Positions 10,446 through 26,689 of a stretch of 56,930 nt of DNA are shown in pieces. The stretch spans positions 1 to 56,930 of the forward strand of contig JAGVWZ010000022.1 of NCBI GenBank assembly GCA_018304045.1, given 5' to 3'. This DNA is from Candidatus Pacearchaeota archaeon (GTDB lineage: Archaea > Nanobdellota > Nanobdellia > Pacearchaeales > GW2011-AR1). Within the stretch, counting starts at the first letter, position 1. Every line of letters starts with the position of its first letter. Position numbers and translations under genes: made by a program. The notes beneath the pieces are model-generated. The model saw nothing but the letters and a program-made list of their open reading frames with translations, made no database searches and was not told where the DNA came from.

Positions 10446-10497
10446 ATACAAATGCAAAAGTATTTTTGGATTGTTAATTAGGTATTGTTAATAATGT

Positions 10498-10505
10498 TTA
10501 TATAG
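10498..10505 (+). promoter_or_regulatory. TATA box (tttatata) for the first toxin cassette
   Basis: About 25 nt upstream of the ATG at 10526. The same tttatatagataaatt block precedes the cassettes at 18472 and 20966. Confidence 0.55.
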
Positions 10506-10525
10506 ATAAATTCGCTAGATTGACT

Positions 10526-11677
10526 ATGGGAAAAAGAGGATTGTTTTTATTATTTTTAATTGTTATTAGTCTGGTTTTTGTTTCTGCATTTAATTTTAAT
10601 TCAAATATTTTTGTTAAAAAAGGGGAATTAAAGGTTACAGATGAACATCCGTTCTTTTTGAATGAAAGTTGGGTTAAGGCTTCTGAGTTAAATGTTGGGG
10701 ATGAGCTTGTTACTGTTGATGGAAAGATTGCTAGGATTGTTAATGTTAAGGATGTTAATGAAGAAACTCTTGTTTATAATTTAAGAGTTAATGGTTATGA
10801 GGATTATTTTGCCGAGGGAATTCTTGTACATAATAAAGCTATGGTAAACGCTTATTTAGATGAAGGAATCGGTCCAAATTATGTATTGGGAAGAGGAGAT
10901 GAGGTTGAAATATTGCTTCATGGGGAGGTAATTCGTGGAAAAATTTATCCTAGTTATGATGAAAATAAAAAGGTTATGGATTATCTTCTTGAAGATTCTA
11001 ATGGAAAGTTAATTAATTTTTATCCTTCTGAACTTGACAGATTAACAATTATTGGCAAAAGAGAAGTATTATCTCCAACTTATTTTATTGAGTCTGTTGG
11101 AGACCCAATGTTAGAATCTTCTTTTTGGAAAACAAAGGGATTAATTATTGAAGCATCTTCTCAAAGGGAGTATCGGGGAGTAAAATTTATACCTTTTTCA
11201 GAGTTACCTGATGAAATAGCTGGAGATATTCGTGCAGGGGCAATATTAGGTAATGGATATTCTAAAATCCATACTCATCCCTATGTTGATGAGTTTAGTC
11301 ATAGTTCAATGATACCTTCTTTAACTGATGTAAACTCTTTTTTAATGGATTACGATCTTAAAAGTAGTATCATTGCAATTAGGAATACAGATACTGGGGA
11401 AGTTGCAGGTTATATATTCCTTAAGAGAATAGATTCTAATCCGGAGATAAGTGCTGAATATTTAAGAAAATTTAATAATGATGTTAAAGATTATTCTCCA
11501 ACTGCAGATGGACTTAAATTTTTAGACTATTGGGATTTTTTTGGCAAGGTATATCCTGATGTTTATTTTAGTGGAATGGAAAAACTTAGGGAATATGGAA
11601 TCACCTATAGGATTGTACCAAATAAAAATGCAGGATATGTATTTGATGAAGAGGCCATAGGCTTTATCAAGAAATAA
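10526..11677 (+). CDS. secreted HINT-C cassette protein with a JAB/MPN-like C-terminal domain
   Basis: Signal peptide MGKRGLFLLFLIVISLVFVSA. The HINT C-half is ELKVTDEHPFF...VGDELVTVDGKIARI...VYNL...GILVHN (10628-10834). The tip carries IHTHPYVDEFSHSSMIPSLTD, a JAMM-like HxH..S..D pattern. The ORF track starts at TTG 10520. Confidence 0.65.
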   Translation: MGKRGLFLLFLIVISLVFVSAFNFNSNIFVKKGELKVTDEHPFFLNESWVKASELNVGDELVTVDGKIARIVNVKDVNEETLVYNLRVNGYEDYFAEGILVHNKAMVNAYLDEGIGPNYVLGRGDEVEILLHGEVIRGKIYPSYDENKKVMDYLLEDSNGKLINFYPSELDRLTIIGKREVLSPTYFIESVGDPMLESSFWKTKGLIIEASSQREYRGVKFIPFSELPDEIAGDIRAGAILGNGYSKIHTHPYVDEFSHSSMIPSLTDVNSFLMDYDLKSSIIAIRNTDTGEVAGYIFLKRIDSNPEISAEYLRKFNNDVKDYSPTADGLKFLDYWDFFGKVYPDVYFSGMEKLREYGITYRIVPNKNAGYVFDEEAIGFIKK

Positions 11678-11709
11678 ATATTTATAAATACCCCCATGTT
11701 AGTTATAAA

Positions 11710-12477
11710 ATGAAAAAGAGAGAAATGAAGGGGCAGATTTCTATTTTTGTGATTATTTCAATTGTTGTTATATTTGGTGTAATTATCATTTCATTTTTTT
11801 TAGTTAAGGATAATAGTGTTGTGAGAGAATATATCAATAGAAATAGTGTTTCTTCTGAGATTATGCCTGTTTATGAAAAAATGGATAGTTGTTCTAATCA
11901 AATAGTTATTGATGCTATTCGAATTGTTGGATTACAGGGAGGATATGTAAAACTTCCAAATAATTATTTGGCAACTAATCTTGGAAATATTGCGTATGGT
12001 TATTATAATGGGAAAAATACTTTACCTTCGAAAGTGATTATGGAAAAAGAAATAAGTTCTTATATTGAAGGGGTTTCACCTCTTTGCTTATATGATGATG
12101 TTCTTATTAATTATAAGATTGTTAATGAAAAACCAATTGTTGAAACTAAAATAAATAAGGATAATGTTGAAGTTTCTGTTTCAATGAATATTTTTGTTAC
12201 TAAAAATAATGTTACATATAAACTTGATAAAACATATAATTCTAAAATTTTAATTAGGCTTGGAGATATGATTGATGTTGCAAATGAAATTGTTGAAAGA
12301 GAGAAAAAAGATCCTGGTTATATACCTTTAACTTATTTGTCAGAATTAGACTATAATATTCTTACAATGCCTAATGATGATAATGATGTTGTTTATGCAA
12401 TAGTTGATAGATCAAATAAATCTCTTGTTGATGGAGTTGCTTATAGCTTTTTATTTGCTAATAAGCTTGGAGCATAG
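11710..12477 (+). CDS. type IV pilin-like protein (class III signal peptide)
   Basis: MKKREMKG/QISIFVIISIVVIFGVIIISFF: a [KR]G-Q prepilin-peptidase-type site followed by a hydrophobic helix. Confidence 0.5.
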   Translation: MKKREMKGQISIFVIISIVVIFGVIIISFFLVKDNSVVREYINRNSVSSEIMPVYEKMDSCSNQIVIDAIRIVGLQGGYVKLPNNYLATNLGNIAYGYYNGKNTLPSKVIMEKEISSYIEGVSPLCLYDDVLINYKIVNEKPIVETKINKDNVEVSVSMNIFVTKNNVTYKLDKTYNSKILIRLGDMIDVANEIVEREKKDPGYIPLTYLSELDYNILTMPNDDNDVVYAIVDRSNKSLVDGVAYSFLFANKLGA

Positions 12478-12480
12478 GAT

Positions 12481-15400
12481 ATGAAAACAAATAAATTACT
12501 TTTGAGTATTTTTTTAATATTTATTATTATATTTTACATTAATTTTGTTATAGCAGAAGTTAGTATTAAGGTTGAACCTGATAAAACAATTAATGACCTT
12601 GATTCTCAGACTAGTATTAATGTCAATAATCTTCAAAATTATATTAAACAGAATATTCCTGATTTAAATAATAATCCTGATTTGGGAAAAATAGTTGTTG
12701 ATGTTGATGGAAAAATTAGACTTTATTATAATAACAAAATAGTTTTTGATATACCTAAAGGAATTAAACTAACTTTTGATGGAAAAAAAATGGTTTTTAG
12801 TGGATCTGTTCAGTCTGTTTATACCACAACTTCTAATGGAAGACAACAAGAGATTCCTAGTTTAGTTATAAAAGGAATCATGATTGGAAGTGAAAAGTCT
12901 AAGACTTTTTCTGCTTATTTTGAAGAAAATAATGGGATTATTAATTTGAGGGTTACTGGTGGAATGGGTGTAAGCCAATACAATAGTGACAGGGTTAGTT
13001 TAAGTTATATGATTTATAATCTTAAGGATGGAACTCTAAAAATTGATTCTAATAAAAAACAACTAATTTCTGTAAAAGGAGTTTTTGGAGATTATGGTGG
13101 AGATATAAGAATAGGTGGCAGTGAAACTTCTGATACTTCTTTTAAATTAAATTATTTGGGATTAAAAAATGCTGAGATGAATTTCAATGATAAAAATGAA
13201 GTTGAATATGCTAAATTAGCTTCTTTAAAAGAACAAACTTATAGTTTTGATTATAATGGGAAGAAGTTTGTATTTGGTACAAATAAAGATGGGGGGGAAG
13301 TTATATTTGATCCATTACATCAAATAATCTCTGGAACTAATGCTAATTTAGCTTTTTCTAAAATGGTTGTTGATTCAAAGGGCACTTTTACAGGAAGTCT
13401 TGATGCAGATGGAAATATTGTTTCTCTTAGTTTAGATAATAAAGGAAAATTTAAGGATGATAGGGGTAATGATTATTCATCTTCAAAAAGTTTGAAGGTA
13501 TATTTAGATGGAAAGGATATTAAATCTGAGGAAAATGCTGTTTCATTTATTCTTGGTTCTGAATCAAAGACTACATTAAAGGGTTTAGTAGATGTTATTA
13601 CTACTTCTAAGCTTCATTATTCTGGAAATGAAAAAGCATATACTTTGTTTGATAGTAGAATTAATAATGATTATGGAAAACCTTTTTTTGAAGTTAAAGA
13701 AGGAATCGCTCAAATTGATAATGGTAATGCAAAAATTTTAGTCAGGGATGGAAAAATATTATTAAATAAAATAGGTCTTTCTGATAGAAATGGTTTTGGT
13801 CCTGAATTTGTTGTAAAAGCAACTGGTAAGGACCAAAAGGAAACTTTAGCTAATATTGTCTATACAAATGATGATTTTTCTATTTCAATTAAGTCTTTTA
13901 TTAATGGAAAGGAAACAGACACAAAGGTTGTTGCTTTAAGTAAGGTTAGTGAAACCATGTCTCTTTCTAATTTATTATTTAATTCAGAAAATGTTTTGGT
14001 TGAAAAAGCTTATGCAAAAGCTAGACTAGAGCAACTTCAAGCAGAGCTTGAAATCACAAGAAGCAATGATTTTGATCCTGAAATAAAAAGTAAAATTGAT
14101 GCATTAGAACTTGATATTGTAAATAATCAGAATAAACTTGAAGGTGATGTTGACAAATCTATCGGAAGAATTAGGGATTATTTAGATTCACAAAACAGGG
14201 AAGATGAATCTAGGATGACTGCTCAATTAAGATTAGCTGAATTAATAGGGGATAAAGCAAGTTTAAAATATCAGGAATTTAGAGCAGCGAGTAAAGATGT
14301 AAAGCCTGAGGGAGTAGCTCTTTTAACTTTGGATGAAATTGGTTCAGAAGTTAATAAAATCAAAGACGAATCCTTAAAAATTTATTCAGATTTGATTAGA
14401 GAATCAAAAGGGAATAATGAGAATGTATTTTTAGCTGCTAGTTTTGGTCTTGCAGAATCTTATAAGAAAACAGGGGATTTTAAACAATCTGTTGATGGTT
14501 ATTTAAGCATATCTGGTTCTTCTGAATTTTCTGATGTGGTCAGGTCTGAGGCAATGAGGCAAGCTGCAATTATTGCTACTGAAACAGGAAGTAGATCTGA
14601 TGCTTTAAAATACCTTGAACAGTCTATTAGCCTTAATTCAGATAATGTAAATTCACAAATCTTTGGAAAAAATGTTCAATTAACTTATCTTCGTCAAATG
14701 GTAGGTTCAATGGGAAATGAAGAAACAGAGGCTTATCAAACACTTTTATCTTCAATTGGTTATAATAGGGCGGCTAGTATTACAACTTCTAATGAGCAAT
14801 TATTAGCTAATGTAAATTCAGCTGCAGCAGAATTAACAGAACAACAGTTAGGTGCATTTGCAAATATGTATGCTTTAGATAATGGTTTGACATTGAAAGA
14901 ATTTTATTCTCAGAATCAAGAACAAAGAATAAAGACACTTGAATCTTATTGGATCAGGCAAGGAATGAATCCTGGAAAAGATTCTGAATTTATTGCTAGA
15001 CTTGTTAGTGGGAGTTTTAAGATTGATAATAATCCTGATATGATGGTTCTTAGAGATCCTATTAAAAATTCTGATTTAACTTTAACACTCGATACTCCTG
15101 GTAAAAAATATATGCAACAGGTTTTTTCAATAAGAGATGATATTCTTACTTATGTAAATCCATTTCAAGCTGCAGCCCTTCTTCTGCCTTTTGCTTCTGT
15201 ATCCTATGGTGGAAAAATTATTGGTACTGTTGGAAGTTTAATGGGTGAAGGATTAAATGCAGCTACTCTTGGAGGAGCAGGTGTTTTAAGAACAACAATG
15301 GCTGAAAATTTAGGAGCTTTTACAACTGATTTGCTTCTTGGAACTGGATTATCTGTTGGTGCATATCAAATTCCAGGAGAGGTTTATGGAATTGGTGTTG

Positions 15401-15978
15401 GTGAAGTTGCAGCTCAGGCTGCTGCTATGATAAGTTTTGAGAGATTAGTTACTCAGACTTTAGAAAAAGTAGCTGGTAAATTTAGTCTCGAGGCTGCAGG
15501 TGCATTTAAGAGTGAGGTTGGAGGAGAATTAAAATTAATTCCTGCTTTTAGGGTTGTTGGAGCAGAGGCTGATGCTACTGCAGAAACTTTGGCTCAAAAA
15601 GGTCTTAGGATGATAGAAACTGAAACTGGAGAAAAATTATTTGTTCCAGATTCTGCTGAAGTTGAAGGATTAGAATACTTATTAAAAAGGGATCTTCAAG
15701 TTGGAGCTAGTTCTGGATTAAGAGGTGCTCAACAAAATTTAGATGAAGCTGTAGACAGTTTAGATGCTGCTTTTGCTAGTCCAACAGGTTGTTTCTTAGC
15801 AGGAACAAGAATAATGCTTTCTGATGGAAGCTATAGAAACATTGAAGATATTCAAGAAGGAGATTCTGTTAAGAGTTATGATTTGACTAAGAAATTAGTT
15901 GTTGATTCTAATGTTACAATGACTTTTGTAAGAAAATCTGACAGCTATAGAATAATTGAATATGAGATTCTTGGATAA
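12481..15978 (+). CDS. 1165-aa secreted carrier protein ending in the N-terminal part of a pretoxin-HINT domain
   Basis: N-terminal signal peptide, a large beta-rich region, a coiled-coil/TPR-like middle and a Gly/Ala-rich hydrophobic stretch. The last 62 aa are CFLAGTRIMLSDGSYRNIEDIQEGDSVKSYDL...YRIIEYEILG-stop (15790-15975), which is HINT block A only. Confidence 0.7.
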   Translation: MKTNKLLLSIFLIFIIIFYINFVIAEVSIKVEPDKTINDLDSQTSINVNNLQNYIKQNIPDLNNNPDLGKIVVDVDGKIRLYYNNKIVFDIPKGIKLTFDGKKMVFSGSVQSVYTTTSNGRQQEIPSLVIKGIMIGSEKSKTFSAYFEENNGIINLRVTGGMGVSQYNSDRVSLSYMIYNLKDGTLKIDSNKKQLISVKGVFGDYGGDIRIGGSETSDTSFKLNYLGLKNAEMNFNDKNEVEYAKLASLKEQTYSFDYNGKKFVFGTNKDGGEVIFDPLHQIISGTNANLAFSKMVVDSKGTFTGSLDADGNIVSLSLDNKGKFKDDRGNDYSSSKSLKVYLDGKDIKSEENAVSFILGSESKTTLKGLVDVITTSKLHYSGNEKAYTLFDSRINNDYGKPFFEVKEGIAQIDNGNAKILVRDGKILLNKIGLSDRNGFGPEFVVKATGKDQKETLANIVYTNDDFSISIKSFINGKETDTKVVALSKVSETMSLSNLLFNSENVLVEKAYAKARLEQLQAELEITRSNDFDPEIKSKIDALELDIVNNQNKLEGDVDKSIGRIRDYLDSQNREDESRMTAQLRLAELIGDKASLKYQEFRAASKDVKPEGVALLTLDEIGSEVNKIKDESLKIYSDLIRESKGNNENVFLAASFGLAESYKKTGDFKQSVDGYLSISGSSEFSDVVRSEAMRQAAIIATETGSRSDALKYLEQSISLNSDNVNSQIFGKNVQLTYLRQMVGSMGNEETEAYQTLLSSIGYNRAASITTSNEQLLANVNSAAAELTEQQLGAFANMYALDNGLTLKEFYSQNQEQRIKTLESYWIRQGMNPGKDSEFIARLVSGSFKIDNNPDMMVLRDPIKNSDLTLTLDTPGKKYMQQVFSIRDDILTYVNPFQAAALLLPFASVSYGGKIIGTVGSLMGEGLNAATLGGAGVLRTTMAENLGAFTTDLLLGTGLSVGAYQIPGEVYGIGVGEVAAQAAAMISFERLVTQTLEKVAGKFSLEAAGAFKSEVGGELKLIPAFRVVGAEADATAETLAQKGLRMIETETGEKLFVPDSAEVEGLEYLLKRDLQVGASSGLRGAQQNLDEAVDSLDAAFASPTGCFLAGTRIMLSDGSYRNIEDIQEGDSVKSYDLTKKLVVDSNVTMTFVRKSDSYRIIEYEILG

Positions 15979-16058: not shown

Positions 16059-16658
16059 ATGTTAAAGAATGATGAAATTAAAATATTGAAATTCTTGTTT
16101 GATGATTTAAACAATAATCCTACTATGAGAAATGTTTCAATGTCACTTAAGCAAAAATATCCTCAAACATTTAAAACCATCAAAAATCTAGAAAAAAATG
16201 GATTTATAATACTTAATGAAATTGGAAAAAGTAAAGTTATTCATTTAAATTTTTCAAAAGATAATCTTTATTATATCTGTGTTGAAATTGAGCGAACCGA
16301 GGATTTATGCAAAAAGAATATGGAAATGTTAATTATTAAAGAAAAATTAAAAGACTGTGGGAATTTTGTTTCTTTGATATTTGGAAGCCATGCAAAAAAT
16401 AAGAATCTGAAAGGTTCAGATATTGATTTATTAATCATAATTCCTGATGAAAAAGAAGTAGAAATAACTAATAAAAAAATTAAGAATGCTTTATCTTTGT
16501 ATAATATTGATCTTAATATTATTAGTGAAAAAAGCTTATTTGAAATGTGGGAAAATAAAAGAGAATTAAATGTTGGAAATGAAGTATTAAAAAATCATTA
16601 TGTATTGACTGGTTTTGAAACTTATATAAATTATTTAAGAAAAAAATATGGAAGATAA
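16059..16658 (+). CDS. wHTH + minimal nucleotidyltransferase (MNT)
   Basis: LIFGSHAKNKNLKGSDIDLLIII is the NTase motif. The N-terminus looks like a winged helix. It overlaps the next gene by 11 nt. Confidence 0.7.
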   Translation: MLKNDEIKILKFLFDDLNNNPTMRNVSMSLKQKYPQTFKTIKNLEKNGFIILNEIGKSKVIHLNFSKDNLYYICVEIERTEDLCKKNMEMLIIKEKLKDCGNFVSLIFGSHAKNKNLKGSDIDLLIIIPDEKEVEITNKKIKNALSLYNIDLNIISEKSLFEMWENKRELNVGNEVLKNHYVLTGFETYINYLRKKYGR

Positions 16659-17202
16659 ATATAAAACTAGTACAAGTATAATCAAGAATTTGATAACTGA
16701 AGGAAAAATTAAAGAAGCAATACCTGAAAGCAAAGACTTTTTCTTAAATAAAGCTATTTCTTCAGTTACTCTTTCAGATAGATTATTTAGATTACAAGAT
16801 GAAGAAGATATTGAAACAAATATGTGGATAATAAATATTTCTTATTATGCTATGTTTTTTGCTGCAACAGCACTTCTTGCAAAATATAAAAAGAAAATTG
16901 ACAGTGAGATTGGGATTCATATTTTCACATATCATGCATTAGTCCATTATTTTTTTAATGAGGATAATAAAATTGAAAAACAGTTTATTGAAGAGTATAA
17001 AGATGCTGTTGATGAAGCTGAAGAATTATTGAGGATTTCTGAAAGAAAATCAATAGAATTCATTTCTGATTTCAAGAATGAGCTTGAAAAAAGAAAGATT
17101 TTTACATATAATCTTGGAAGCATAGCTGAAAAAAACAAGGCAGAAACTTCATTAAAAAGAGCTAAGAATTTTGTTAGAATAATTGAGGGAATGATAAAAT
17201 GA
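16648..17202 (+). CDS. HEPN-domain protein (partner of the MNT)
   Basis: Helical PF05168-like pattern (NISYYAMFFAATALLAKYKKK..GIH.FTYHAL). Its TGA overlaps the ATG of the next cassette as ATGA. Confidence 0.6.
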   Translation: MEDKYKTSTSIIKNLITEGKIKEAIPESKDFFLNKAISSVTLSDRLFRLQDEEDIETNMWIINISYYAMFFAATALLAKYKKKIDSEIGIHIFTYHALVHYFFNEDNKIEKQFIEEYKDAVDEAEELLRISERKSIEFISDFKNELEKRKIFTYNLGSIAEKNKAETSLKRAKNFVRIIEGMIK

Positions 17203-18022
17203 AAAATTTATTTAAAAATAGAAAAACAGGTGTTTATTTTATTTTAATATTAATAATTTTTTTAATTGTAATTAGTTTAGTTTTTGTTTCTGCTTTTAAC
17301 TTCAACAAAAATGTATTAAAAGTTACAGATGAACATCCATTTTTTGTTACAGAGAATTGTTTTAATTCTCTGTCCAGTAAAAATCAAACTCAAGATTTTT
17401 CCTGTAATGGAAGTTGGGTTGTTGCTAAAGATTTGCATGTTGGTGATGAGCTTTTTACTATTGATGGAAAGATTGCTAGGATTGTTGGGATTAAAGATGT
17501 TGATGAAAATGTTCTTGTCTATAATCTAGGGGCAGAAAAATATAATGATTTTATTGTTGTGAAACTGTTTTTTTTGAAGCAAGTCTTGGGCAAGATGTGG
17601 AATTAATAAATGATCTCTTTGGCACCAGTGTAAGGTTTAAAGATGGGGCTACAACATTTATTAAAGATACCTCTGAATTAGGTTATATATATGATTTTGG
17701 TTCTGTTGTTAAACAAGATAGAATTTTTTTAAAAGAAGCTAGTAAGTTTGGTCATCAAACTAGTGAAAGAATGGAAGCTATGATTGAAAGGTTATTAGGT
17801 GGGGGAGATCCTGGAAAAGGTAGCCATACTCTTACTGGAGTAAGTAATTCTGTACTAGAGGCTACATCTCAGGGAAAAGAAAGGATATATTATAGAATTA
17901 AACATATTGAGGGTCAAAGATCTCAATTAATAATATTAGCATATTCTCTTAAAGATAGTAGTCAAAAAAGGGTTATAGACCATTTGCAGGTTTTATATCC
18001 TCCAGGTTATAAGTTTCCTTGA
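17199..18022 (+). pseudogene. HINT-C cassette with a RelE/ParE-like tip, frame-disrupted at a T8 run
   Basis: Head MKNLFKNRK plus signal peptide plus LKVTDEHPFF..(19-aa insertion)..VGDELFTIDGKIARI..VYNL..KYNDFIV. The frame breaks at tttttttt (17568-17575) and the terminal VHN is missing. The downstream frame encodes ...GKGSHTLTG..GKERIYYRIKH..QLIILAYSLK. Confidence 0.5.
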
Positions 18023-18343: not shown

Positions 18344-18364
18344 AAAAGCATATTAGGGTATAGG

Positions 18365-18450
18365 TTTTTAAATCTTCCTAATAGTTACCACTATAAAGTA
18401 ACTTATAAACTAGGTTTAGTATCCTAGTTGATATTATTAATCTTTATATA
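18365..18450. promoter_or_regulatory. about 86-bp reiterated intergenic block with two opposed TATA boxes
   Basis: Matches 23376-23463 with 4 mismatches and 20924-20944 in part. tttatata (18443-18450) lies 25 nt before the ATG at 18472. tttttaaa at the other end faces the minus-strand gene. Confidence 0.6.
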
Positions 18451-18471
18451 GATAAATTGTTTGATTTGGTT

Positions 18472-19686
18472 ATGAAAAAAAGAGGATTGTTTGTATTATT
18501 TTTAATTGTTATTAGTTTGATAAGCTTAATTTCAATTGCAAGTTCATTTGATTTGTTTGATAATAAAAACATTTTAAAAGTTACTGGTGAACATCCGTTT
18601 TATTTAAATGGTGAGTGGGTTGTTGCTAAAGATTTGAATGTTGGTGATGAGCTTTTGACTATTGATGGAAAAATTGCGAGGATAATTGGGATTAAAGATG
18701 TTAATGAAAATGTTGATGTGTATAATATAGAGGCTGAGGAGTATAATGATTTTATTGTTGGGCAGGGAATTATTGTGCATAATTCTGATGCTGTTGAATC
18801 AATTCCTCAAATAGAACAAAGACTTGAAAGTGGAGGAATAACTCTGGCTGAACTTGACAGGATTGATTATGCTAATTATCTTTTAGAAAAAAATGGATTA
18901 TCAATATTAACTCCTGAACAAGAAAGAGCACTTTTGCTGTCTCATTATTCAAATACTGGAAATATTGACAAAGTTTGGAGATTGGGTGAAGCTGGTTTAA
19001 GTAATGAACAAATAACTCTTCTAGGAGATAATTGGGTATTTGGTGATAATTTAATATCTTTAAGTGAGGAATTAAAGCAATGGTTAGTCAATGCAGGGGT
19101 TACTAGTAAGGAAGCTAAATCATTATTAACTGGGGTGAATAGTTATGATCAACAAATTGAAATTTTAAAGAGAATAATGGCTGAAAAGAAATTCCTTCCT
19201 GGTGGAAAAACAGGAGGATATATGCCTTTATCAAATCTACAAGTGTCTAGTGAAGTTGTTCTTAATGAGGTGGATATTTTTTTAGCAGGAAATCAAGTTC
19301 TTAGAAATGGAAAACCTGTTCAAGGCCTTTCAATAGGTAATGGATATATTGAATTTGTTGGATATCATTTTACATCACAAATTGGAGCTGATAATTTATA
19401 TAATCAAATGAAATTTGAAAGAATAAACCCATTTGACCCTTATATTTATTTTTCAGAGTCTGGTTGGTTTACAGGAAAATCTCAAAATGAAATAAGGCAG
19501 GTACTTGGTGCAAAATCTGCTCAAGATGTTGTAATTGTGAAAATACGATATCCCTTGAATAAAGCATGGTTGAAGGCAGAACCTGGAAAACCTATTAAAA
19601 TAGCTTTTGATGGGGATATTATTGCAGAAGATCTTTTAAAGAGAAAAGGGATTTTAATGGAAATTAAGGATATTAATGATTTATAG
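18472..19686 (+). CDS. secreted HINT-C cassette protein with a putative ADP-ribosyltransferase-like tip
   Basis: Signal peptide MKKRGLFVLFLIVISLISLISIASS. Complete HINT C-half LKVTGEHPFY...GIIVHN/S (18574-18783). The C-terminal region has YHFTS, PYIYFSES and IIAEDLL, a pattern reminiscent of H-Y-E ARTs. The ORF track starts at TTG 18457. Confidence 0.55.
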   Translation: MKKRGLFVLFLIVISLISLISIASSFDLFDNKNILKVTGEHPFYLNGEWVVAKDLNVGDELLTIDGKIARIIGIKDVNENVDVYNIEAEEYNDFIVGQGIIVHNSDAVESIPQIEQRLESGGITLAELDRIDYANYLLEKNGLSILTPEQERALLLSHYSNTGNIDKVWRLGEAGLSNEQITLLGDNWVFGDNLISLSEELKQWLVNAGVTSKEAKSLLTGVNSYDQQIEILKRIMAEKKFLPGGKTGGYMPLSNLQVSSEVVLNEVDIFLAGNQVLRNGKPVQGLSIGNGYIEFVGYHFTSQIGADNLYNQMKFERINPFDPYIYFSESGWFTGKSQNEIRQVLGAKSAQDVVIVKIRYPLNKAWLKAEPGKPIKIAFDGDIIAEDLLKRKGILMEIKDINDL

Positions 19687-20421
19687 ATTTTGAAGAGCTT
19701 TTTCTATTGATCTATAAAATCTTGTTTCAAATCTATGTTGGTTCGCATGAGGTTGTCTTATTGAAAGCTGAAGTAATGCTTGTTCTGGTTTTGTAAGTCT
19801 TCTATACATAGCTAGAACTCTTATAAGTGGTTCTACTTGTGTTTCATCTTCAAATTGTTTTTGTATCATGACTTCATCTACTTTTAATCTCATTTGCCTT
19901 AATCTTTCTTGAAAATAAAAATCAAAATATTGTTTTAAGAAAACAGAATGCGCTAATGGGGATGGATTTTTAATATCTAAATTGTCTTCAACATCATAAA
20001 AATAAACAGGACTATCTAAAGATTTTTCTAAAACTTCATTTTTTACTTCTTCTGGAACATAGTTTTGAAGGTAAAAAAAATAAGATGGTTTATAGATCTT
20101 TTTTCTTGCTTCTAAAATGTCCATGGATTCTTTGCCTAACAAATGTGCTTCAACATTTCCTTTTCTTTTTCTTGGTCTTCTTGTAAATAAACTGAAGTCA
20201 GTAAAACCATTTATTAATTTCAATCCTTGCCATATTGATTCTACACTGTTTGCATATGCAACTTGTTCTGGTACTGGTATTTTAAATTCTGGAGAATAGG
20301 TGAATGGGCTAAACAGGTTATATGGGGCTTCTCCATAACTACTTACATCCAATGCAGTATCTATTCCTTGGGAATTTTCTCTAGTAGTTGCATTAAATCT
20401 TTCAGTCATTTTGGTGTCCAA
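19681..20421 (-). CDS. hypothetical protein co-transcribed with the macrodomain gene
   Basis: 246 aa with no signal peptide. It overlaps the macrodomain gene by 16 nt and the toxin cassette 3-prime end by 6 nt. A weak NADAR-like N-terminal pattern (NLFSPF...SVESIWQGLK) is not convincing. Confidence 0.3.
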   Translation of the reverse strand: MDTKMTERFNATTRENSQGIDTALDVSSYGEAPYNLFSPFTYSPEFKIPVPEQVAYANSVESIWQGLKLINGFTDFSLFTRRPRKRKGNVEAHLLGKESMDILEARKKIYKPSYFFYLQNYVPEEVKNEVLEKSLDSPVYFYDVEDNLDIKNPSPLAHSVFLKQYFDFYFQERLRQMRLKVDEVMIQKQFEDETQVEPLIRVLAMYRRLTKPEQALLQLSIRQPHANQHRFETRFYRSIEKALQNL

Positions 20422-20837
20422 ATCTCTAAATTTAGTCTTGATTCACTGAAATATTTTTCAATTATTTTTTCTACAACTTCCCAATTTTGTCTGCCTAATC
20501 CACATCCAATTTTTGGCATTGCAATTGTGCTTATATTTGGTAATTGTAATCTAGACATCCATTCTAATGATGTTTCAATGTAGCCTAATCCTGAGTATCT
20601 TCCATCTTGCGTTGCTAGATTTATTACATGGGGCTTTTGAGGATTTTGATAAATATAACCTGTTCCCAATTGAAATTCTCCTTTTCTGCATCTTCTTTGA
20701 AAATCTTCATACATTTCTGGAAATCTTTCTTTGAAACCCCTGGCTATGCCTGCATTCATTTTTCCAACTATATTACAACCATGAGCCAATGCATCTGTGT
20801 TTGAAGAGAATAAATCTCCATGCCTATACGGTATCAT
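20406..20837 (-). CDS. macrodomain protein, TARG1/OARD1/DarG-like
   Basis: HGDLF..TDALAHGCN..GKMNAGIARGFKERFPE ... IAMPKIGCGLGRQNWEVVEKIIEKYF. From memory this is collinear with human TARG1 (GDLF..SLAH..MGAGIA..FK..F ... MPRIGCGLDRLQWE.V..IEEVF). Confidence 0.8.
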   Translation of the reverse strand: MIPYRHGDLFSSNTDALAHGCNIVGKMNAGIARGFKERFPEMYEDFQRRCRKGEFQLGTGYIYQNPQKPHVINLATQDGRYSGLGYIETSLEWMSRLQLPNISTIAMPKIGCGLGRQNWEVVEKIIEKYFSESRLNLEIWTPK

Positions 20838-20923
20838 AATTAAGGGCAGTTATTGTTATTTATAAATCTAATGATTTGTTATTACTTGATAGTAACTTAT
20901 AAATTAATTTTTGTAATTCTCAA

Positions 20924-20944
20924 GATATTATTAATCTTTATATA
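20924..20944 (+). promoter_or_regulatory. partial copy of the cassette promoter block with a TATA box
   Basis: gatattattaatctttatata. The tttatata at 20937-20944 lies 25 nt upstream of the ATG at 20966. Confidence 0.5.
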
Positions 20945-20965
20945 GATAAATTGGTTGATTTTGTT

Positions 20966-21834
20966 ATGAAAAAAAGAGGATTGTTTGTATTATTAATTGT
21001 AATCAGTTTGATAAGCTTAATTTCAATTGCAAGTTCATTTGATTTGTTTGATAATGGAAGTAAAAATATATTGAAAGTTACAGGTGAGAAAAATATAATG
21101 ATTTTATTGTTGGGGAGGGGGTTATTGTTCATAATAGTAATAGGATTGTTCCTGACATTACAGAATCCTATTATGAGGTTTTTGTTTATAATTGGGGTAA
21201 ACAATCTAGAGATCTTGTTCCAGGATTTAGTGAAGATGGAATGCTTGAAATAATTATAGTTGATTTTGAGAATGTCAGGCCTGGTTTAAAAAGCGCAATT
21301 GAAACAAGGTTTTCTAGATCTTTTGATTCAATAACTAGTACTTCAAGTTTTGATGAACTAAATAGTGCTGCTGTAAGTTTTTCAAAGAGAATGTATGATG
21401 ATCTTCCGTTTTTAGGCTATAGAACAATAGAGACAATGAGAATTGAAACTTTGGATCAAAAAATTCTTTTTTATAACTATCTGAAGTTATCTCAGGATGG
21501 CACCCCAACATTAAGCGAGTTGATTAATTCTAAGATGTTAGATTGTACTGGTGAGAATCTTTTGATTAGAGAATCGCTTGGTGGAAGCAATAGTGGATGG
21601 AAAATTTTCCATGGAATTGATAATGTTGGGAGGGAAAGAGCCCATACTTTTCTTGCAAAAGAATTTGATATAGATGGAAATTCCTATATGGTGATTATAG
21701 ATCCTACTGAATATAAATTGTATTCAGGCTCTATGAATACTGGGATAAATCCTGATTATATCAGGCCATATGCGATGGTCATTCCAAAACAAGATTTTGA
21801 GAGAAGGGGATTTGTGCAAGTAAGTTTGAGATAG
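20966..21834 (+). pseudogene. mini-HINT cassette with a transglutaminase/papain-like tip; frame break in an A5 run
   Basis: Signal peptide plus ILKVTGE, then a frame break at 21089-21093. One extra A would give GEKKYNDFIVGEGVIVHN/S in frame. The tip has DCTGENLL (Cys 21544), RAHTFL (His 21643) and VIIDPTE (Asp 21699), a Cys-His-Asp order. Confidence 0.5.
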
Positions 21835-21968: not shown

Positions 21969-22706
21969 TTATTCAAATCCAAGAAGAGTGTCTGAATTTC
22001 CTTTTATTTTTATTGTTGGATTTTGTTTTGCATCGATTATACTTTTATAGAAGGATGGGTCGAATAGAACTGCTTGTCTTAAGTCAGGTATATATGAGCA
22101 AGGAACTTTTGTTTCAAGACCTGTCGGGCACTTAAATATACCTTGTTTTAATGGAAATCTATTGTCTGTTAAAATTGAGGTATCATATCCTATATGTGGC
22201 ATTGAATCTCTTGCTATTTCTTCTGCTAGTATTCTTGAATAGTATTCTGTTGGTTTTGATTGCCCATTTTGTTGCTTTAAAAAATCTGCTAGTGTTATTA
22301 GGTCTGTGAATAATCTTACTGGATCTTCTGTTCTTAGGTTTTGTAAGAATTCATGAGAAGGTAATGACTGAGTGTCTTTTATTGATAGAGTTATTTCATA
22401 ATCATTCTCTGGATTTAATAATTGTATTTTTTCAACCTCATATTCCCTTTTTGCTATTCTTCCTGGAGGAATTAAAGCAGAGTATCTTTGCTTAAGATAT
22501 GCTATATCTTCATTGATGTCTTTTCTTAATAGAAATCCTACTCTTCCTTGTTGTGTTGGTAGTTCACATTGTTCTGAATTAAATCCAATGCATGTAGATA
22601 TTGTTATATCTTGAGGTTGTCCTAATCTATAATAAAACAATTGAAATCTTGAGTTTCTTTTAAGAGCTTTTTTATTATATTTTTGAGTTCTGTCGTTTAT
22701 TTCCAT
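21969..22706 (-). CDS. hypothetical cytoplasmic protein (candidate immunity partner)
   Basis: 245 aa with no signal peptide, convergent with the 20966 cassette and in an operon with the SGNH hydrolase gene. Confidence 0.3.
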   Translation of the reverse strand: MEINDRTQKYNKKALKRNSRFQLFYYRLGQPQDITISTCIGFNSEQCELPTQQGRVGFLLRKDINEDIAYLKQRYSALIPPGRIAKREYEVEKIQLLNPENDYEITLSIKDTQSLPSHEFLQNLRTEDPVRLFTDLITLADFLKQQNGQSKPTEYYSRILAEEIARDSMPHIGYDTSILTDNRFPLKQGIFKCPTGLETKVPCSYIPDLRQAVLFDPSFYKSIIDAKQNPTIKIKGNSDTLLGFE

Positions 22707-22720
22707 TTTATTTCCAAATT

Positions 22721-23353
22721 TTAGCGGTATATTAATTTTGCTACCTCTTGTGCTATTAATTTTGCCCCTTCTTCATTTGGATGAACTGCATCTGCAAAAT
22801 GTTCATCTCTTAGAACAGAGCAGATATCTGCTAGAGGTATATTATTAGATGTTGCATATTCTCTTAGTGCTGAATTATGAAATTGTCTTTGAAAGACTGC
22901 ATTTGCATATCCTCTCTTTGAAAATTTTCTTGAATTTACATTTAAAACATTTATTAAAATGATTCTTTTGTCTCTTTGTTTTATTTCTTTTACAGCAGAT
23001 TCTAAACTTCTTATTACTTTTGGAGAAATAATCTCTATTTGGTCTGTTGGAATATCATTTGTTCCATAACCTATTATGAAATATCCAGAAAATGGAAAAA
23101 GTTCAAGAGCTTTTCTTGCTCTGATTGTTGCTACTTTACTTTCTTCACCAGATATACCACAATCAGCTACTTGAGTATCTGTTGATTCTTGTAGGAATAC
23201 TGGATAGGTTCTATAGGGGCCACTTGGAAAACTAGTTCCTCTTGTATTGTTCCACCCAGTTATACTGTCTCCGACACATACTATCTTCACTTGCTCTTTT
23301 TTAGCCTGAAAATCAGGAGTGTTTTCATCAACCAAATATAATAATTTTGTCAT
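22721..23353 (-). CDS. SGNH/GDSL-family hydrolase
   Basis: Block I VCVGDSITGW, block III GYGTND, block V DAVHPNEEG. Confidence 0.75.
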   Translation of the reverse strand: MTKLLYLVDENTPDFQAKKEQVKIVCVGDSITGWNNTRGTSFPSGPYRTYPVFLQESTDTQVADCGISGEESKVATIRARKALELFPFSGYFIIGYGTNDIPTDQIEIISPKVIRSLESAVKEIKQRDKRIILINVLNVNSRKFSKRGYANAVFQRQFHNSALREYATSNNIPLADICSVLRDEHFADAVHPNEEGAKLIAQEVAKLIYR

Positions 23354-23375
23354 GGTTATAAACAGAATTTTTATG

Positions 23376-23463
23376 TTTTTAAATCTTACTAATAGTTACC
23401 ACTATGAAGTAACTTATAAACTAGATTTAGTATCCTAATTGATATTATTAATCTTTATATATT
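23376..23463. promoter_or_regulatory. second full copy of the bidirectional cassette promoter block
   Basis: About 86 bp with 4 mismatches to 18365-18450. The tttatata box is at 23454-23461. Confidence 0.6.
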
Positions 23464-23482
23464 AATTCTTGTTATTAAATAA

Positions 23483-23512: not shown

Positions 23513-23574
23513 GGAAAGTTTTAAATACTATATTAATTAATAGTTAATATATATTAACTTATTGGAAATATAAC

Positions 23575-24144
23575 ATGGTACTTACAAAAGAACAAAAAAT
23601 AATTATTATTTTATTTAAAGAAAAGCTTGGATTTTATAATAGCAGAAGCATGTCAAAAATAGTTGGAATTAGTCATCCTGGTGCATTTAAAATACTGAAA
23701 AAACTTGAGAAAAATTTTATAGTTAGTTCTAAAAGGATTGGAAAAGCAATTATTTTTTCTTTGAATTTTGAAAATCCTATGACAAAAAACTTGGTTGAAA
23801 ATGCATTAATAGCAGAATCACAGGAATATAAAAGATGGGTTGAAGAATTTAAGGAAATTGAAGAAATATCTTTATTTGCAATATTATTCGGCTCAATTAT
23901 AAAAAATGAAAATTCAGCAAAGGATATTGATTTACTTGTTGTTTCAGAACAAAATTATCAATCCATTATACAAAAGATAATAAATGGAAAAAACAAGATT
24001 TCTAATAAAAAAATTCATTTAATTCTGCAAATAGGAGAAGATTTTTTAAATGACCTGCATAAAAATAATAAAGTTATTCTTGAAATAATAAAAACAGGCA
24101 TTGTGTTATTTGGACAAGATAAATTTATTAAACTGATAAAATGA
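23575..24144 (+). CDS. wHTH + minimal nucleotidyltransferase (MNT)
   Basis: ILFGSIIKNENSAKDIDLLVV is the NTase motif. The architecture matches 16059-16658. It overlaps the next gene as ATGA. Confidence 0.7.
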   Translation: MVLTKEQKIIIILFKEKLGFYNSRSMSKIVGISHPGAFKILKKLEKNFIVSSKRIGKAIIFSLNFENPMTKNLVENALIAESQEYKRWVEEFKEIEEISLFAILFGSIIKNENSAKDIDLLVVSEQNYQSIIQKIINGKNKISNKKIHLILQIGEDFLNDLHKNNKVILEIIKTGIVLFGQDKFIKLIK

Positions 24145-24659
24145 GCGAGGCAAAAAGAAAAGTGGAATGGTGCTTGAGAAAAGCAGAAGAAGAATTAAAA
24201 AAAGGAACAAAACATAGGGGATTGGTTTTGAAGGAACAAAATTTATCTGAAGCTAGAAAACATATTCAAAAAGCAGAGCATAATCTTAAGGCAATTGAAT
24301 ATTTTAGCAATGGGGGATTTTCAGATTGGAGCATGAGTGCTGTTTTTTATTGCATCTATCATTGTTTTCTTGCAATAAACATGAAATTTGGATATGAAAG
24401 TAGAAATCAGGAATGTACTATTGCTCTTGTCAAACATCTAAAAGAGGAAAATAAAATAAATTTAGATGATAGATTCATAGATGCTTTGGAAATCTATGAT
24501 GAAAGTGAAAGACATGAGACAAATGTTATTGAAAAAAGAGAATATTACACATATGGAACAACTGTTTCAGCAGATAATAAGGAAGAAATTGAAGCAAGCA
24601 TTGTTTTATGCAAGGACTGCATAGCTCAAACGAAAAATATAGTTTTTCAAGATAATTGA
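24141..24659 (+). CDS. HEPN-domain protein
   Basis: EARKHIQKAEHNLKAIEYFSNGGFSDWSMSAVFYCIYHCFLAINMKFG fits the PF05168-type HEPN helix pattern. Confidence 0.6.
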   Translation: MSEAKRKVEWCLRKAEEELKKGTKHRGLVLKEQNLSEARKHIQKAEHNLKAIEYFSNGGFSDWSMSAVFYCIYHCFLAINMKFGYESRNQECTIALVKHLKEENKINLDDRFIDALEIYDESERHETNVIEKREYYTYGTTVSADNKEEIEASIVLCKDCIAQTKNIVFQDN

Positions 24660-24671
24660 GGTAATGATAAA

Positions 24672-25711
24672 ATGAAAAATATATTTAAGAATAGGAAAAG
24701 AGAATTTTTAATATTATTAATTGTAATCAGTTTGATAAGCTTAATTTCAATTGCAAGTTCATTTGATTTGTTTGATAATGGAAGTAAAAATATATTGAAA
24801 GTTACAGGTGTAATTATGAGAATTATTTTGCTGGGAATGTGCTGGTGCATAATAAGCCTGTTCCAAATAAGTATTTGGATCCTGAATTTGCAGGGGTTAA
24901 ACAAGTTTCACCTCAAGAATTAGATAATCTTTATGATGAAAAAGATGCTTTAGATAGACTTGTTGGACAAGAGCCTGGAATTGTTAGAAATGATCAGGGA
25001 AATATCAAAGAAGTTTATTTGATAGATCCTTCTAAAGTTGATTTGGATAAATTGCCTGAAAGAATAAGATATCTGGCTGAAAATAGTGATGGACCTATTG
25101 CAATAAAATATTATAGACAAGAGAGTAGACTTACTCGTACATATTATCCTGATGACAAGTTAGAAGATTTTATAGCTGAGCTAGAGATATCTGAAAAATT
25201 AAATGCAAGATTTGAAGCAGAGGGAATGAAACCGCTTTTACCTAAAAAGAGTTTGATTGGAATATCTGCAGATTCTGAAAATGGGAATATTTTTGTAAAA
25301 GGTTTTATTGCAGAAGAATTAATTCCTGAAAAATCTGTTGTTGAACTTAGGACTGAACTGGAGGATGTTTATTTAGATAAAGAAGTTGATTTTGGAAGAA
25401 TTCTTGAGCTAGAAAGCAGAATAAATAGTAAGTTATCTGAATCTAGATATACATTCAATAGGATTTTTGAACAAGAGGGAATTGGTTGGTATGATGCAGA
25501 TGATAGAAATACTGCAATTGGATTTCTTGAAAGAAGAACTGGTAGAATATTGACTTTGACACAGGTTTTAGATGGAAATTATATTATAGGAAAGGCCCCT
25601 AATAGTGGAGATATAGAGGTTTATATAAGATTTTTTGAAATTGGATTTGGAAGACAAGTAAAACCTGGAAGGGGGTATTTTGGTGGTTTTGTTGATTGTT
25701 ATTTTCATTAA
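24672..25711 (+). pseudogene. mini-HINT cassette with a tip of unknown fold; frame break at 24810-24812
   Basis: Head MKNIFKNRK plus signal peptide plus ILKVTG. The downstream frame reads (C)NYENYFAGNVLVHN/KPV..., followed by a 290-aa tip. One added nucleotide after ggtg would restore the frame. Confidence 0.5.
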
Positions 25712-25789
25712 TAATAATGATTATTAATGCATAGAATTTGATAAGATAAATCAAGCAGCAGTTAGAAGATATACTTTACTTAATACACA

Positions 25790-25975
25790 TAAAAAATCCA
25801 CTACATTTATGTAGTGGTCTTAAGTTACCTGGATTTTTTCTGGTTCTCCCCAAATCCGTACAAACCCACATGTCAGAAATCTTTTATGGATTTCTGAGCA
25901 CTATCAGGAATTTTTAATTCCTGAAGCATTTATGTGTGGGTACAAATCCGAAGGATTTAGTGATACTAGATATCT
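25790..25975 (+). ncRNA. candidate structured RNA, possibly related to 10262-10445
   Basis: Hairpins: ccactacat-tt-atgtagtgg (25798-25817), cagaaatc-ttttatg-gatttctg (25874-25896), caggaatt-ttt-aattcctg (25905-25923) and aaatcc-gaa-ggattt (25944-25958). A closing helix pairs cccaca with tgtggg. No ORF is present. Confidence 0.35.
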
Positions 25976-26063
25976 TTTTGTGACTAATAATAAAATCCAT
26001 TTTTGAGATAAAGATAATGTCCTATAGGTTGTAATAACTACTTATATTTGATAGAAGATATGA

Positions 26064-26366
26064 TTAAAGTAATTTTCTTCCAATTTGCATAGCGCATGGT
26101 GAGCAAAAAGGCCCTGTTACTATTAGGGTATTAGATGTTATTTTTCCATATACATCTTGATGTTCGTTTGGTTGATATAGTTCTCTACATTGCCTGCAGA
26201 TTACTAATTCGGTTTGTCCTTGAGTTAAATCTAGAGAAGTATTAATTGGTTTTCTTGGTAATTCTGAGATTAGTTGTTCTAGATATTTTTGAGACATATA
26301 GTTAAAATCAAATCTTTCTTGATTTCTTAATTGTTCTATTTGCTGTGTAGTTAATATTTGTCTCAT
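26064..26366 (-). CDS. small zinc-ribbon protein
   Basis: CRQC...CSPC pairs. 100 aa, in an operon with 26369-26689. Confidence 0.4.
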   Translation of the reverse strand: MRQILTTQQIEQLRNQERFDFNYMSQKYLEQLISELPRKPINTSLDLTQGQTELVICRQCRELYQPNEHQDVYGKITSNTLIVTGPFCSPCAMQIGRKLL

Positions 26367-26368
26367 TT

Positions 26369-26689
26369 TTATAATTCGTTTAATAAAGATTCAATTGTCT
26401 GCCTGAATGTTTCTGCATCATCTTGATTTTCTTTAGCTTGATTTAATTCATCAATAGCATCTTGTCTTAAAATTCTTTCATAAACTTGGTTTCCTCTTAT
26501 TGGTTCTTGTCCTTGGCCATGAACTAAAAATAAAATTCCTTTTCCAGTAGGTTCTTTATGAAAGCGATCATATACTTGAAATATTGTTCCTACTTTTAAT
26601 GTTATTCTTTCTCCTTCTCTTGAAGTATAGCTCATACTAAAATCAGGTGAGGGTATTGTAGCTCTTAAAGTTCTTAAATCAGTAGCCAT
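26369..26689 (-). CDS. hypothetical small cytoplasmic protein
   Basis: 106 aa with a 2-nt gap to the downstream gene and a TATA-like tttttaaa upstream. Confidence 0.3.
   Translation of the reverse strand: MATDLRTLRATIPSPDFSMSYTSREGERITLKVGTIFQVYDRFHKEPTGKGILFLVHGQGQEPIRGNQVYERILRQDAIDELNQAKENQDDAETFRQTIESLLNEL

Follow-up and report, generated by a model that had tools for sequence, protein, structure and literature searches.

How might five predicted secreted proteins, each with only one half of a HINT domain, work in an archaeon, and where is the other half of the domain? The question is raised by an island at positions 10,498 to 26,689 of contig JAGVWZ010000022.1 (GenBank assembly GCA_018304045.1), from a Candidatus Pacearchaeota archaeon, a member of the DPANN archaea. 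We analysed the contig stretch at its full length of 56,930 nucleotides, referred to here as the window. Its G+C content is about 30 % and it encodes a threonyl-tRNA synthetase (ThrRS) with an archaea-specific editing domain together with other housekeeping genes; the best identity of the ThrRS is 68 %, to metagenome-assembled genomes (MAGs) of Woesearchaeota, Pacearchaeota and Nanoarchaeota. A tRNA scan and an Rfam scan of the window found no features. A first-pass annotation, made from the letters alone, had described the island as a series of polymorphic-toxin-like cassettes with a common head, unrelated tips and small convergent partner genes.

Here we report that the missing half of the domain ends a large carrier gene of the same island. 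We consider that the island is probably a polymorphic-toxin-type locus of DPANN archaea in which the pretoxin-HINT (PT-HINT; bacterial intein-like, BIL) domain is naturally split and its two parts are secreted separately; once outside the cell, the parts would come together again and splice or cleave toxins. The argument is drawn from the split architecture, its conservation in relatives, the complementarity of the two halves in sequence and structure, the conservation of catalytic residues and the pattern of partner genes. The genes that carry the two halves are as follows.

12481 to 15978, plus strand: carrier, 1165 aa; it starts with a signal peptide and is Gly-rich and hydrophobic in a region close to its C-terminus.
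15790 to 15975, plus strand: HINT N-half, the last 62 carrier residues, G/CFLAGTRIML...YRIIEYEILG and then a stop; Pfam Hint positions 6-61.
10526 to 11677, plus strand: cassette c1, with a signal peptide, a HINT-C half (10628-10834) ending LVHN/K and a 280-aa tip; PT-HINT positions 60-136 of 137.
17199 to 18022, plus strand: cassette c2, with a MKNLFKNRK-type signal peptide, a HINT-C half with a 19-20-aa insert and a tip; intact at 288 aa (...VIVHN/S) in the sibling assembly L005.
18472 to 19686, plus strand: cassette c3, intact at 404 aa, with a HINT-C half (18574-18783, ...IIVHN/S), a linker of about 100 aa and a unique tip.
20966 to 21834, plus strand: cassette c4, broken in the window; intact at 337 aa (...VIVHN/S) in the sibling assemblies L005 and L006.
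24672 to 25711, plus strand: cassette c5, broken in the window; intact at 395 aa (...VLVHN/K) in L005 and L006.

The five cassettes lie where the first-pass annotation had placed them and share the head that it described, namely M[KG]KRGLF or MKN[LI]FKNRK, a hydrophobic segment and LKVT[DG]EHPF. The HINT-C similarity that it had claimed is borne out by hidden Markov model (HMM) searches, in which Pfam PT-HINT matches c1 (E 2e-11), c2 (1e-7) and c3 (1.4e-12), with PF07591 above the gathering threshold in all three. These matches cover profile positions of about 55-137 of 137 only, from block B (LKVTxEHPF) to the terminal VHN. PT-HINT is matched by all 32 cassettes examined in the window and in related genomes (E <= 0.001), each time by the C-half only. 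The heads had been taken for stand-alone, reduced HINT domains; they are instead C-halves, and the N-half of their domain forms the end of the 1165-aa carrier gene, a complement that the earlier account of the island had overlooked, and with this the likely mechanism changes.

The carrier C-terminus reads ...ASPTG/CFLAGTRIMLSDGSYRNIEDIQEGDSVKSYDL...TFVRKSDSYRIIEYEILG and then stops, matching the first ~60 positions of the Pfam Hint models. A HINT-N HMM scores the carrier at E 4.5e-16 and leaves a tail of 3 aa before the stop. As read from the sequence, the carrier supplies block A with the predicted catalytic Cys and the cassettes supply blocks B, F and G, such that one HINT domain is split between genes.

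The split recurs in at least 11 related DPANN loci. The homologues of c3 (337-659 aa) all have the same layout, with a Lys/Arg-rich start, a hydrophobic stretch that usually ends in a small-x-small motif, [EQ]L[KR]VTxEHPF...VVHN[S/K] and a differing tip. A scan with the head, on one genome per species, yielded 78 loci. The form with a signal peptide and half a HINT is present in all DPANN matches (Woese-, Pace- and Nanoarchaeia, Aenigmatarchaeota) and in one MAG labelled Methanosarcinales; every archaeal cassette has the signal peptide directly before [EQ]L[KR]VT and has no block A. In the bacterial matches of the same scan the HINT is contiguous, and the Cys typically precedes the L[KR]VT strand by 59-64 residues.

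The complementary N-half is likewise widespread. An HMM built from the bacterial N-halves and run on all open reading frames (ORFs) of the archaeal loci found, besides the window carrier, ORFs of 939-1581 aa that end 2-4 residues past the N-half in L014, L015, L017, L019/L026, L022, L029, L031 and L048; with L092 and L093 added, the carriers measure 939-1921 aa and end 1-4 aa past it. Their termini read G-CFL...TF[VK]R...Y.II[EK]YE.. followed by a stop, and in L015, L017, L031 and L048 the start of the first cassette overlaps the carrier stop. An exhaustive HMMER search with the whole carrier against 1.84 billion cluster representatives gave 447 hits. In about 43 of the best 150 representatives, which reach 3554 aa, the match stops 0-4 residues from the C-terminus; in every one of them the N-half opens with Gly/Ala-Cys-Phe-Leu and the terminus is of the IIEYE type, and most have a signal peptide. 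The distance from Cys to stop in the N-half proteins is 59-65 aa, to be compared with the distance from Cys to L[KR]VT given above for the contiguous bacterial relatives. A word-indexed homologue search with a 79-aa N-half fragment returned no candidates, the relatives being found by the exhaustive search with the whole carrier, and a locus search with a narrow N-half alignment returned one locus, already known. Because the same carrier ending recurs in related loci and in database clusters, the sequences indicate that the split is a conserved feature of the family and not a truncation by the nucleotidyltransferase/HEPN pair that follows the carrier in this genome.

Related loci also vary the arrangement. 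On the L092 contig at least two carriers that end in the N-half occur together with two cassettes, which have a metallophosphatase and an amidase as their convergent partners; the first of these cassettes is abutted by a third large gene, which has an S8 peptidase domain. In L093 the cassette lies just upstream of the carrier, as c1 does in the window. Proteins with RHS repeats and their own signal peptides start at or just after the carrier stop, ahead of the cassettes, in L019 (5102-7780) and L022 (11100-12071, minus strand). The protein P0007 (L012 385-2364) resembles a relay, running from a signal peptide and a HINT C-half through VHN/SASPT/C into a complete second HINT (VHN/K) and a tip; its SASPT linker resembles the ASPTG of the carrier just before Cys1. 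Tandem contiguous HINTs, joined head to tail as ...VHNKG/CFLPDT..., occur in proteins of Planctomycetota, Verrucomicrobiota and deltaproteobacteria (L033, L040, L043, L047, L051, L067 and others). The contiguous bacterial HINTs most like the archaeal split form lie near the end of 2600-2750-aa proteins of Omnitrophota (L016, L079), a lineage that is a possible source of the archaeal version as judged by this likeness.

Do the two halves fit each other? The concatenated N-half of the carrier and C-half of c3 align with the BIL domain 2LWY (138 residues) over positions 5-138 with an E-value of 1.5e-10, and the gaps at the junction are of 2 residues only. An AlphaFold2 model of this chimera, computed with an alignment of N-only, C-only and contiguous sequences, has a pLDDT of 91.6 and a pTM of 0.81 and places the junction at a beta-hairpin turn; the same chimera as a single sequence without an alignment gave an uninformative pLDDT of 41. 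The best Foldseek matches of the modelled chimera in the PDB are BIL domains (6Y75; 2LWY with a TM score of 0.87 and a root-mean-square deviation of 1.9 A), followed by mini-inteins and Hedgehog.

The residues expected to carry out the chemistry are conserved on both sides of the split. Cys1 is present in all N-half proteins, typically after Gly, and the block B T and H, the block F VYN and the terminal HN are invariant in the 32 cassettes. The HINT-C paralogues of the window have ratios of nonsynonymous to synonymous substitution rates (dN/dS) of 0.3-0.6, which is moderate evidence for constraint at the protein level. At position +1, the residue that follows the terminal HN, about 29 of 35 split cassettes have Ser; these include c2, c3 and c4 and the majority of those in relatives. 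Lys stands there in c1, c5 and a few further cassettes, and also in the contiguous HINTs recovered from bacteria. Since BIL domains without a +1 nucleophile mainly cleave, and a single mutation turns them to efficient splicing (PMC7664689), the association of the split with Ser at +1 is suggestive of trans-splicing as far as sequence comparison goes.

From these features we infer a mechanism whose steps of export, association, chemistry, toxicity and immunity would run as follows. The components would be one large Sec-secreted carrier with the 62-residue N-half and five independently expressed cassettes, each with a cleavable signal peptide. Carrier and cassettes would be exported separately via Sec, as their N-terminal sequences suggest, and signal peptidase would expose the C-half, starting 1-17 residues before the LKVT strand; mature c3 would begin at about FDLFDNKNILKVT. 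The C-half would then dock on the N-half of the carrier and complete the HINT fold. With Ser at +1 (c2, c3, c4), a thioester at Cys1 would be followed by trans-esterification and Asn cyclisation, and the tip would be joined to the carrier; the junction of carrier and c3 would read ...DAAFASPTG-SDAVESIPQIEQR. With Lys at +1 (c1, c5), cleavage and release only would be expected. One carrier could in this way be armed with any of several toxins, while the convergent cytoplasmic genes would protect the producer, some of them as enzymes that reverse the modification made by the toxin.

The fullest form of this scheme, an extracellular combinatorial trans-splicing in DPANN in which a secreted carrier is covalently armed after export with any of several secreted toxins, we put forward tentatively, with somewhat less confidence than doubt. 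Only one close homologue of the carrier was found, P0001 of a Pacearchaeota MAG (44 % identity). It has no HINT, and a tip of about 190 aa is fused directly to it. P0001 alone shows a fused form of carrier and tip, and it has the architecture that the spliced product would be expected to have. A resemblance of the c1 tip to the fused tip of P0001, suspected by eye, was not significant by BLASTP (E 0.5).

Several points weigh against reassembly of the halves into an active toxin-processing domain. The meeting of two proteins outside the cell is limited by concentration, and thioester chemistry is sensitive to oxygen. Lys at +1 in c1 and c5 leaves no splicing by the canonical route, and the block F residue is Asn (VYNL), where class 1 inteins have Asp; the Asn is shared with BIL domains, which mostly cleave. 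By our own count each half carries a net negative charge, whereas natural split inteins are charge-complementary. The AlphaFold2 model is of a covalently fused chimera with contiguous homologues in its alignment, and shows compatibility, not binding. Pfam and NCBIfam scans matched no family in the five window tips, and three cassettes are frame-broken in the window. Finally, no N-half gene was found in the available sequence around the cassettes of L007, L009, L027 and L028, where the C-half may work alone or its partner may be encoded elsewhere.

This last point supports the rival explanation that survives best, although we judge it unlikely: that the two halves are independent, each cassette being a stand-alone Sec-secreted effector with a HINT-C remnant that acts alone, and the carrier N-half being unrelated or vestigial. 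The remnant could for example cleave itself at HN and so release the tip, the head staying anchored in the membrane; a homodimer that uses the pseudo-twofold symmetry of HINT is a possible form for this. The cassettes that have no N-half gene nearby, in L007 within a neighbourhood of core genes, fit this explanation, as do the separate start and signal peptide of every cassette; a phmmer self-similarity between N-half and C-half is consistent with the pseudo-symmetry. Yet a lone half HINT is not known to fold or cleave, judging by general intein biochemistry. A vestige would moreover hardly be conserved to the residue, with an invariant Gly-Cys, at the end of dozens of secreted giants, and in four loci the two halves lie back to back with overlapping stop and start.

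The second rival places the function at the level of DNA. The heads would mainly be homology arms for recombination of tips, as in orphan cassettes of the Rhs/CDI type, and the split of the protein would be incidental. The heads do have a mosaic look: they are 84-98 % identical in nucleotide sequence in patches, with the 5' end of c4 96.5 % identical to c5 and the 3' end of its HINT 98-100 % identical to c2, and the tips change while the heads stay constant. Just ahead of c2 and c5, 30 nt also resemble the 3' end of the carrier gene. These stretches (17170-17202 and 24643-24675) read ..RIIEGMIK and ..KIIEVMIK before a stop, and the regions upstream of both cassettes share AGAATAATTGA with the carrier 3' end (15940-15978, YRIIEYEILG and stop); they may be relics of a former position directly behind the carrier gene, and in L031 the starts of MKNI-type cassettes overlap the carrier stop. 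This explanation leaves unaccounted for both the precise point, one loop of the domain, at which stop and signal peptide are conserved in distant DPANN lineages (39-60 % identity) and the invariance of the catalytic residues. It is also at odds with the expression signals, the cassettes having their own promoters or operon positions and not being silent orphans. We regard it as improbable as the whole account, while recombination of the heads is compatible with reassembly of the halves as an extra layer.

The expression signals consist of the following blocks, which include the reiterated intergenic block of the first-pass annotation.

10479 to 10525, plus strand: promoter-like block (TTTATATAGATAAATT), 22-29 nt before c1; repeat family D4, shared with 18425-18471 and 20919-20965.
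18361 to 18450, no strand assigned: bidirectional block flanked by the starts of the c2 partner and of c3; repeat family D3.
20855 to 20944, no strand assigned: bidirectional block, partial copy, flanked by the macrodomain gene start and c4; families D3 and D4.
23372 to 23461, no strand assigned: copy of the bidirectional block between the start of the GDSL gene and a nucleotidyltransferase gene; D3, 94 %.

The reiteration is real: compared with 18361-18450, the identity is 94 % for 23372-23461 and 69 % for 20855-20944, and 10479-10504 is a further, partial copy. The box TTTATATAGATAAATT, a putative archaeal TATA element with a leaderless start, lies 22-29 nt before the ATG in c1, c3 and c4 only, and not before four heads as had been claimed. 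The ATG of c2 overlaps, and that of c5 abuts, the stop of an upstream HEPN gene (at c2 as ATGA), and the block at 23372 precedes a string of nucleotidyltransferase, HEPN and c5 genes, not a cassette directly. From this gene order c2 and c5 appear to be co-transcribed with the upstream nucleotidyltransferase/HEPN pairs, which are listed here.

9073 to 10108, minus strand: nucleotidyltransferase (9073-9699) and small HEPN-like gene (9680-10108), directly upstream of c1; Pfam Polbeta/NTP_transf_2 E 5e-11.
16059 to 17202, plus strand: nucleotidyltransferase (16059-16658) and HEPN-like gene (16648-17202), between the carrier stop and c2; NTP_transf_2 E 4e-9, HEPN weak.
23575 to 24659, plus strand: nucleotidyltransferase (23575-24144) and HEPN gene (24141-24659), ending 12 nt before c5; Polbeta E 6e-8, HEPN E 2.5e-7.

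The genes form adjacent pairs of minimal nucleotidyltransferase (MNT) and HEPN genes, as in MNT-HEPN toxin-antitoxin systems, with the HEPN assignment weak or unsupported at 9680-10108 and 16648-17202. Such MNT-HEPN-type pairs stand immediately upstream of cassettes repeatedly, at c1, c2 and c5 and also in L009, L013 and L014, and the window has a further pair at 28067-28906.

Are the tips toxins at all? The third rival holds that they are not: the island would encode adhesins and secreted enzymes that serve an episymbiotic archaeon as a modular system at its surface or in contact with its host, with the convergent genes as unrelated neighbours or as regulators; the HINT may still be split. 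The five window tips match no toxin family, and the labels that the first-pass annotation had attached to them (JAB, RelE, ART, transglutaminase) find no HMM support in Pfam or NCBIfam, although its statement that the five tips are mutually unrelated stands. Cassette c1 has no partner. Dockerin, lectin, S8 peptidase and SLT domains are found among the neighbouring genes in relatives, and DPANN archaea are host-dependent. Against this explanation stand a tip of the Fic family and an AvrB-like (AvrB_AvrC) tip, both of them in relatives and one of each among the 32 cassettes, the remaining tips having no Pfam family, together with the partner genes, to which we now turn.

18023 to 18343, minus strand: c2 partner, 106 aa, a candidate immunity protein by position; no family match.
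19681 to 20837, minus strand: c3 partners, two overlapping genes, DUF6939 (19681-20421, Pfam E 1.5e-24) and a macrodomain (20406-20837, Macro E 1.4e-8).
21969 to 23353, minus strand: c4 partners, an unknown 245-aa protein (21969-22706) and a GDSL/SGNH hydrolase (22721-23353, Pfam Lipase_GDSL_2 E 5e-18); candidate immunity.
26064 to 26689, minus strand: candidate c5 partners of 100 aa and 106 aa, by position, 352 nt after c5.

A convergent partner is thus present for four of the five window cassettes, with the spacing originally reported: a 0-nt gap at 18022/18023, a 6-nt overlap at 19681-19686, and 134 nt and 352 nt in the others. The proposed logic of conserved head, variable tip and adjacent small partner extends to the relatives, where a convergent gene follows 22 of 24 cassettes on the minus strand at gaps of -21 to +259 nt, a tight pairing of the kind expected of immunity genes. 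Turnover of tips is seen there as well, with c3, P0003 and P0004 sharing the head and about 100 aa before they diverge, and the relatives do not hold these genes as scattered single-copy core genes. Among the small partners, Macro/DarG, DUF6939 and GDSL were the only families that the Pfam and NCBIfam scans recognised.

Two of the partner sets are informative. The macrodomain directly behind c3 (20406-20837) matches the DarG antitoxin macrodomain in NCBIfam at E 1.3e-29, and this similarity suggests that the c3 partners are candidate enzymatic immunity proteins against an ADP-ribosylating c3 tip. The c4 tip, which has conserved Cys/His/Asp-like motifs, has homologous counterparts in L017 and L029; the partner in L017 matches the 245-aa gene of the window at 21969-22706 (E 5e-9) and that in L029 matches the GDSL hydrolase at 22721-23353 (E 4e-43). 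Because homologous tips in L017, L029 and c4 have matching partners, tip and partner families co-vary and, by sequence comparison, travel together. The recurrence of the same tip family with the same partner families across genomes, the DarG-type macrodomain, the Fic and AvrB tips and the convergent pairing all speak against the surface-system explanation, to which we give little credence.

It remains to consider the state of the cassettes in the window. The first-pass annotation had treated c2, c4 and c5 as continuous genes; they are frame-broken. The head (17199-17606) and the tip (17597-18022) of c2 do not share a reading frame, and c2 lacks VHN. Cassettes c4 and c5 have lost the middle part of the HINT half, and their tips, together with ...VHN, follow a stop codon in the -1 frame. 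The breaks arise from three small deletions that are absent from the sibling assemblies L005 (ENA) and L006 (JGI), two independent assemblies that are otherwise 99.9-100 % identical to the window over more than 20 kb: 42 nt at 17559/17560 (c2), 143 nt at 21087/21088 (c4) and 148 nt at 24810/24811 (c5). These are the only structural differences, with 1-2 single-base mismatches besides, and all three lie inside HINT-C DNA repeated between cassettes. As far as L005 and L006 cover them, the cassettes are intact there, c1 to c5 measuring 383, 288, 404, 337 and 395 aa, and the intact c4 protein, P0005, is found on 5-7 contigs. The deletions are likely to be assembly errors or other artefacts, or minor alleles, and not part of the biology of the system. 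Programmed frameshifting was rejected for the broken cassettes, there being no common slippery site and the siblings showing simple deletions. The last rival, that the broken cassettes c2, c4 and c5 and the truncated carrier HINT are pseudogene debris or misassembly, is largely refuted and hardly credible in view of the five intact cassettes in two independent assemblies of the same population, P0005 and a carrier ending conserved in dozens of clusters.

The remaining features lie around these genes. An accessory gene precedes the carrier.

11710 to 12477, plus strand: accessory gene, 255 aa, ending 3 nt before the carrier start; homologues precede carriers in relatives.

The accessory homologues (24-52 % identity) lie immediately before the carriers in L001, L014, L017 and L031 and have the common motif KGQ[IV][ST]IF. 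At its N-terminus the accessory protein has MKKREMKGQISIFVI (..KGQISIFVI..), which resembles a class III signal peptide of archaea (type IV pilin-like), and from this likeness the carrier may be tied to a pilus-like structure. Just beyond the island a pair of ParE-toxin and DUF7557 genes (L005 18395-18881, about 29.1-29.6 kb in the window, minus strand) adds to the local density of toxin-antitoxin-type genes. A free-standing ORF of 376 aa with a LAGLIDADG_3 homing-endonuclease domain is found at 39850-40980, beside the ThrRS gene.

A split PT-HINT is not described in the literature that we could search, and we claim novelty provisionally. If the proposal is true, this would be the first natural split HINT or intein acting outside the cytoplasm and the first in which one N-half serves many C-halves, and polymorphic-toxin diversity would be generated at the protein level, beyond DNA recombination. 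Reassembly of the halves would amount to a new build of polymorphic toxin, in which one delivery scaffold is loaded post-translationally with interchangeable warheads, and to natural protein splicing or HINT complementation outside the cell. It would provide DPANN archaea, whose cell-cell interactions are poorly understood, with a recognisable weapon or effector system with identifiable immunity genes. It would also offer a large and diverse set of split HINT pairs, with an unusual mid-domain split and working after secretion, of use for protein ligation technology.

How does the island compare with known systems? With the orphan cassettes of Rhs/CDI loci it shares arrays of alternative tips and partners downstream of one large gene, and mosaic, recombining heads. 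It differs in that Pfam finds no RHS, FHA or TPS domains in the window carrier or in seven related carriers, RHS-repeat proteins following the carrier in some relatives only, and in that the island cassettes have their own promoters and signal peptides. With DarT/DarG it shares the DarG-like macrodomain of the c3 partner, which suggests immunity by enzymatic reversal of ADP-ribosylation. In contrast to that system, the c3 tip has no DarT-family match, the island partner is a macrodomain only (143 aa against the 338 aa of DarG) and the island toxin is predicted to be secreted, not to be the cytoplasmic partner of a toxin-antitoxin pair.

The PT-HINT polymorphic toxins (Zhang et al. 2012, PMC3482391) also place PT-HINT directly ahead of a C-terminal tip that varies, and they too have a large secreted protein on the N-terminal side, clustered cassettes of alternative tips, small adjacent partners and turnover of tips. 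In those toxins the trafficking, pretoxin and toxin parts are on one polypeptide, an arrangement that the island lacks: its HINT is in two genes, with a stop and a new signal peptide at one loop. Each island cassette is predicted to be separately secreted with its own expression signals and is not a silent orphan, the partners are convergent and not co-directional, and position +1 is mostly Ser, not Lys. In the 2012 survey such systems were found among Archaea only in a few methanogens and haloarchaea (PMC3482391), and the host of the island is a DPANN archaeon. In sequence and structure the reassembled domain best matches the BIL domains of Clostridium thermocellum (2LWY) and of the Tetrahymena BUBL locus (BIL2, 6Y75), and BIL domains share with it an occurrence in variable secreted proteins and the VYN...VHN motifs. 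They are contiguous and mostly without a +1 nucleophile (PMC7664689), whereas the island domain is split and mostly has Ser at +1.

The natural split inteins (DnaE, gp41-1, NrdJ-1; PMC2677866; PMC10189870) also form one HINT fold from two separately encoded fragments, with Cys1, the T..H of block B and a terminal HN, and with a Ser at +1 as in c2, c3, c4 and most relatives, though not in c1 and c5. Their halves are likewise often adjacent, sometimes with another gene between them. The island sequence, however, is more like BIL and PT-HINT domains than inteins, and it is split before block B (62 + ~70 aa) rather than at the site of endonuclease insertion or behind a very short N piece. Both island parts have signal peptides and so would meet outside the cytoplasm. 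Split inteins join two parts of one conserved essential enzyme; the island sets one N-flank, the carrier, against five unrelated C-flanks.

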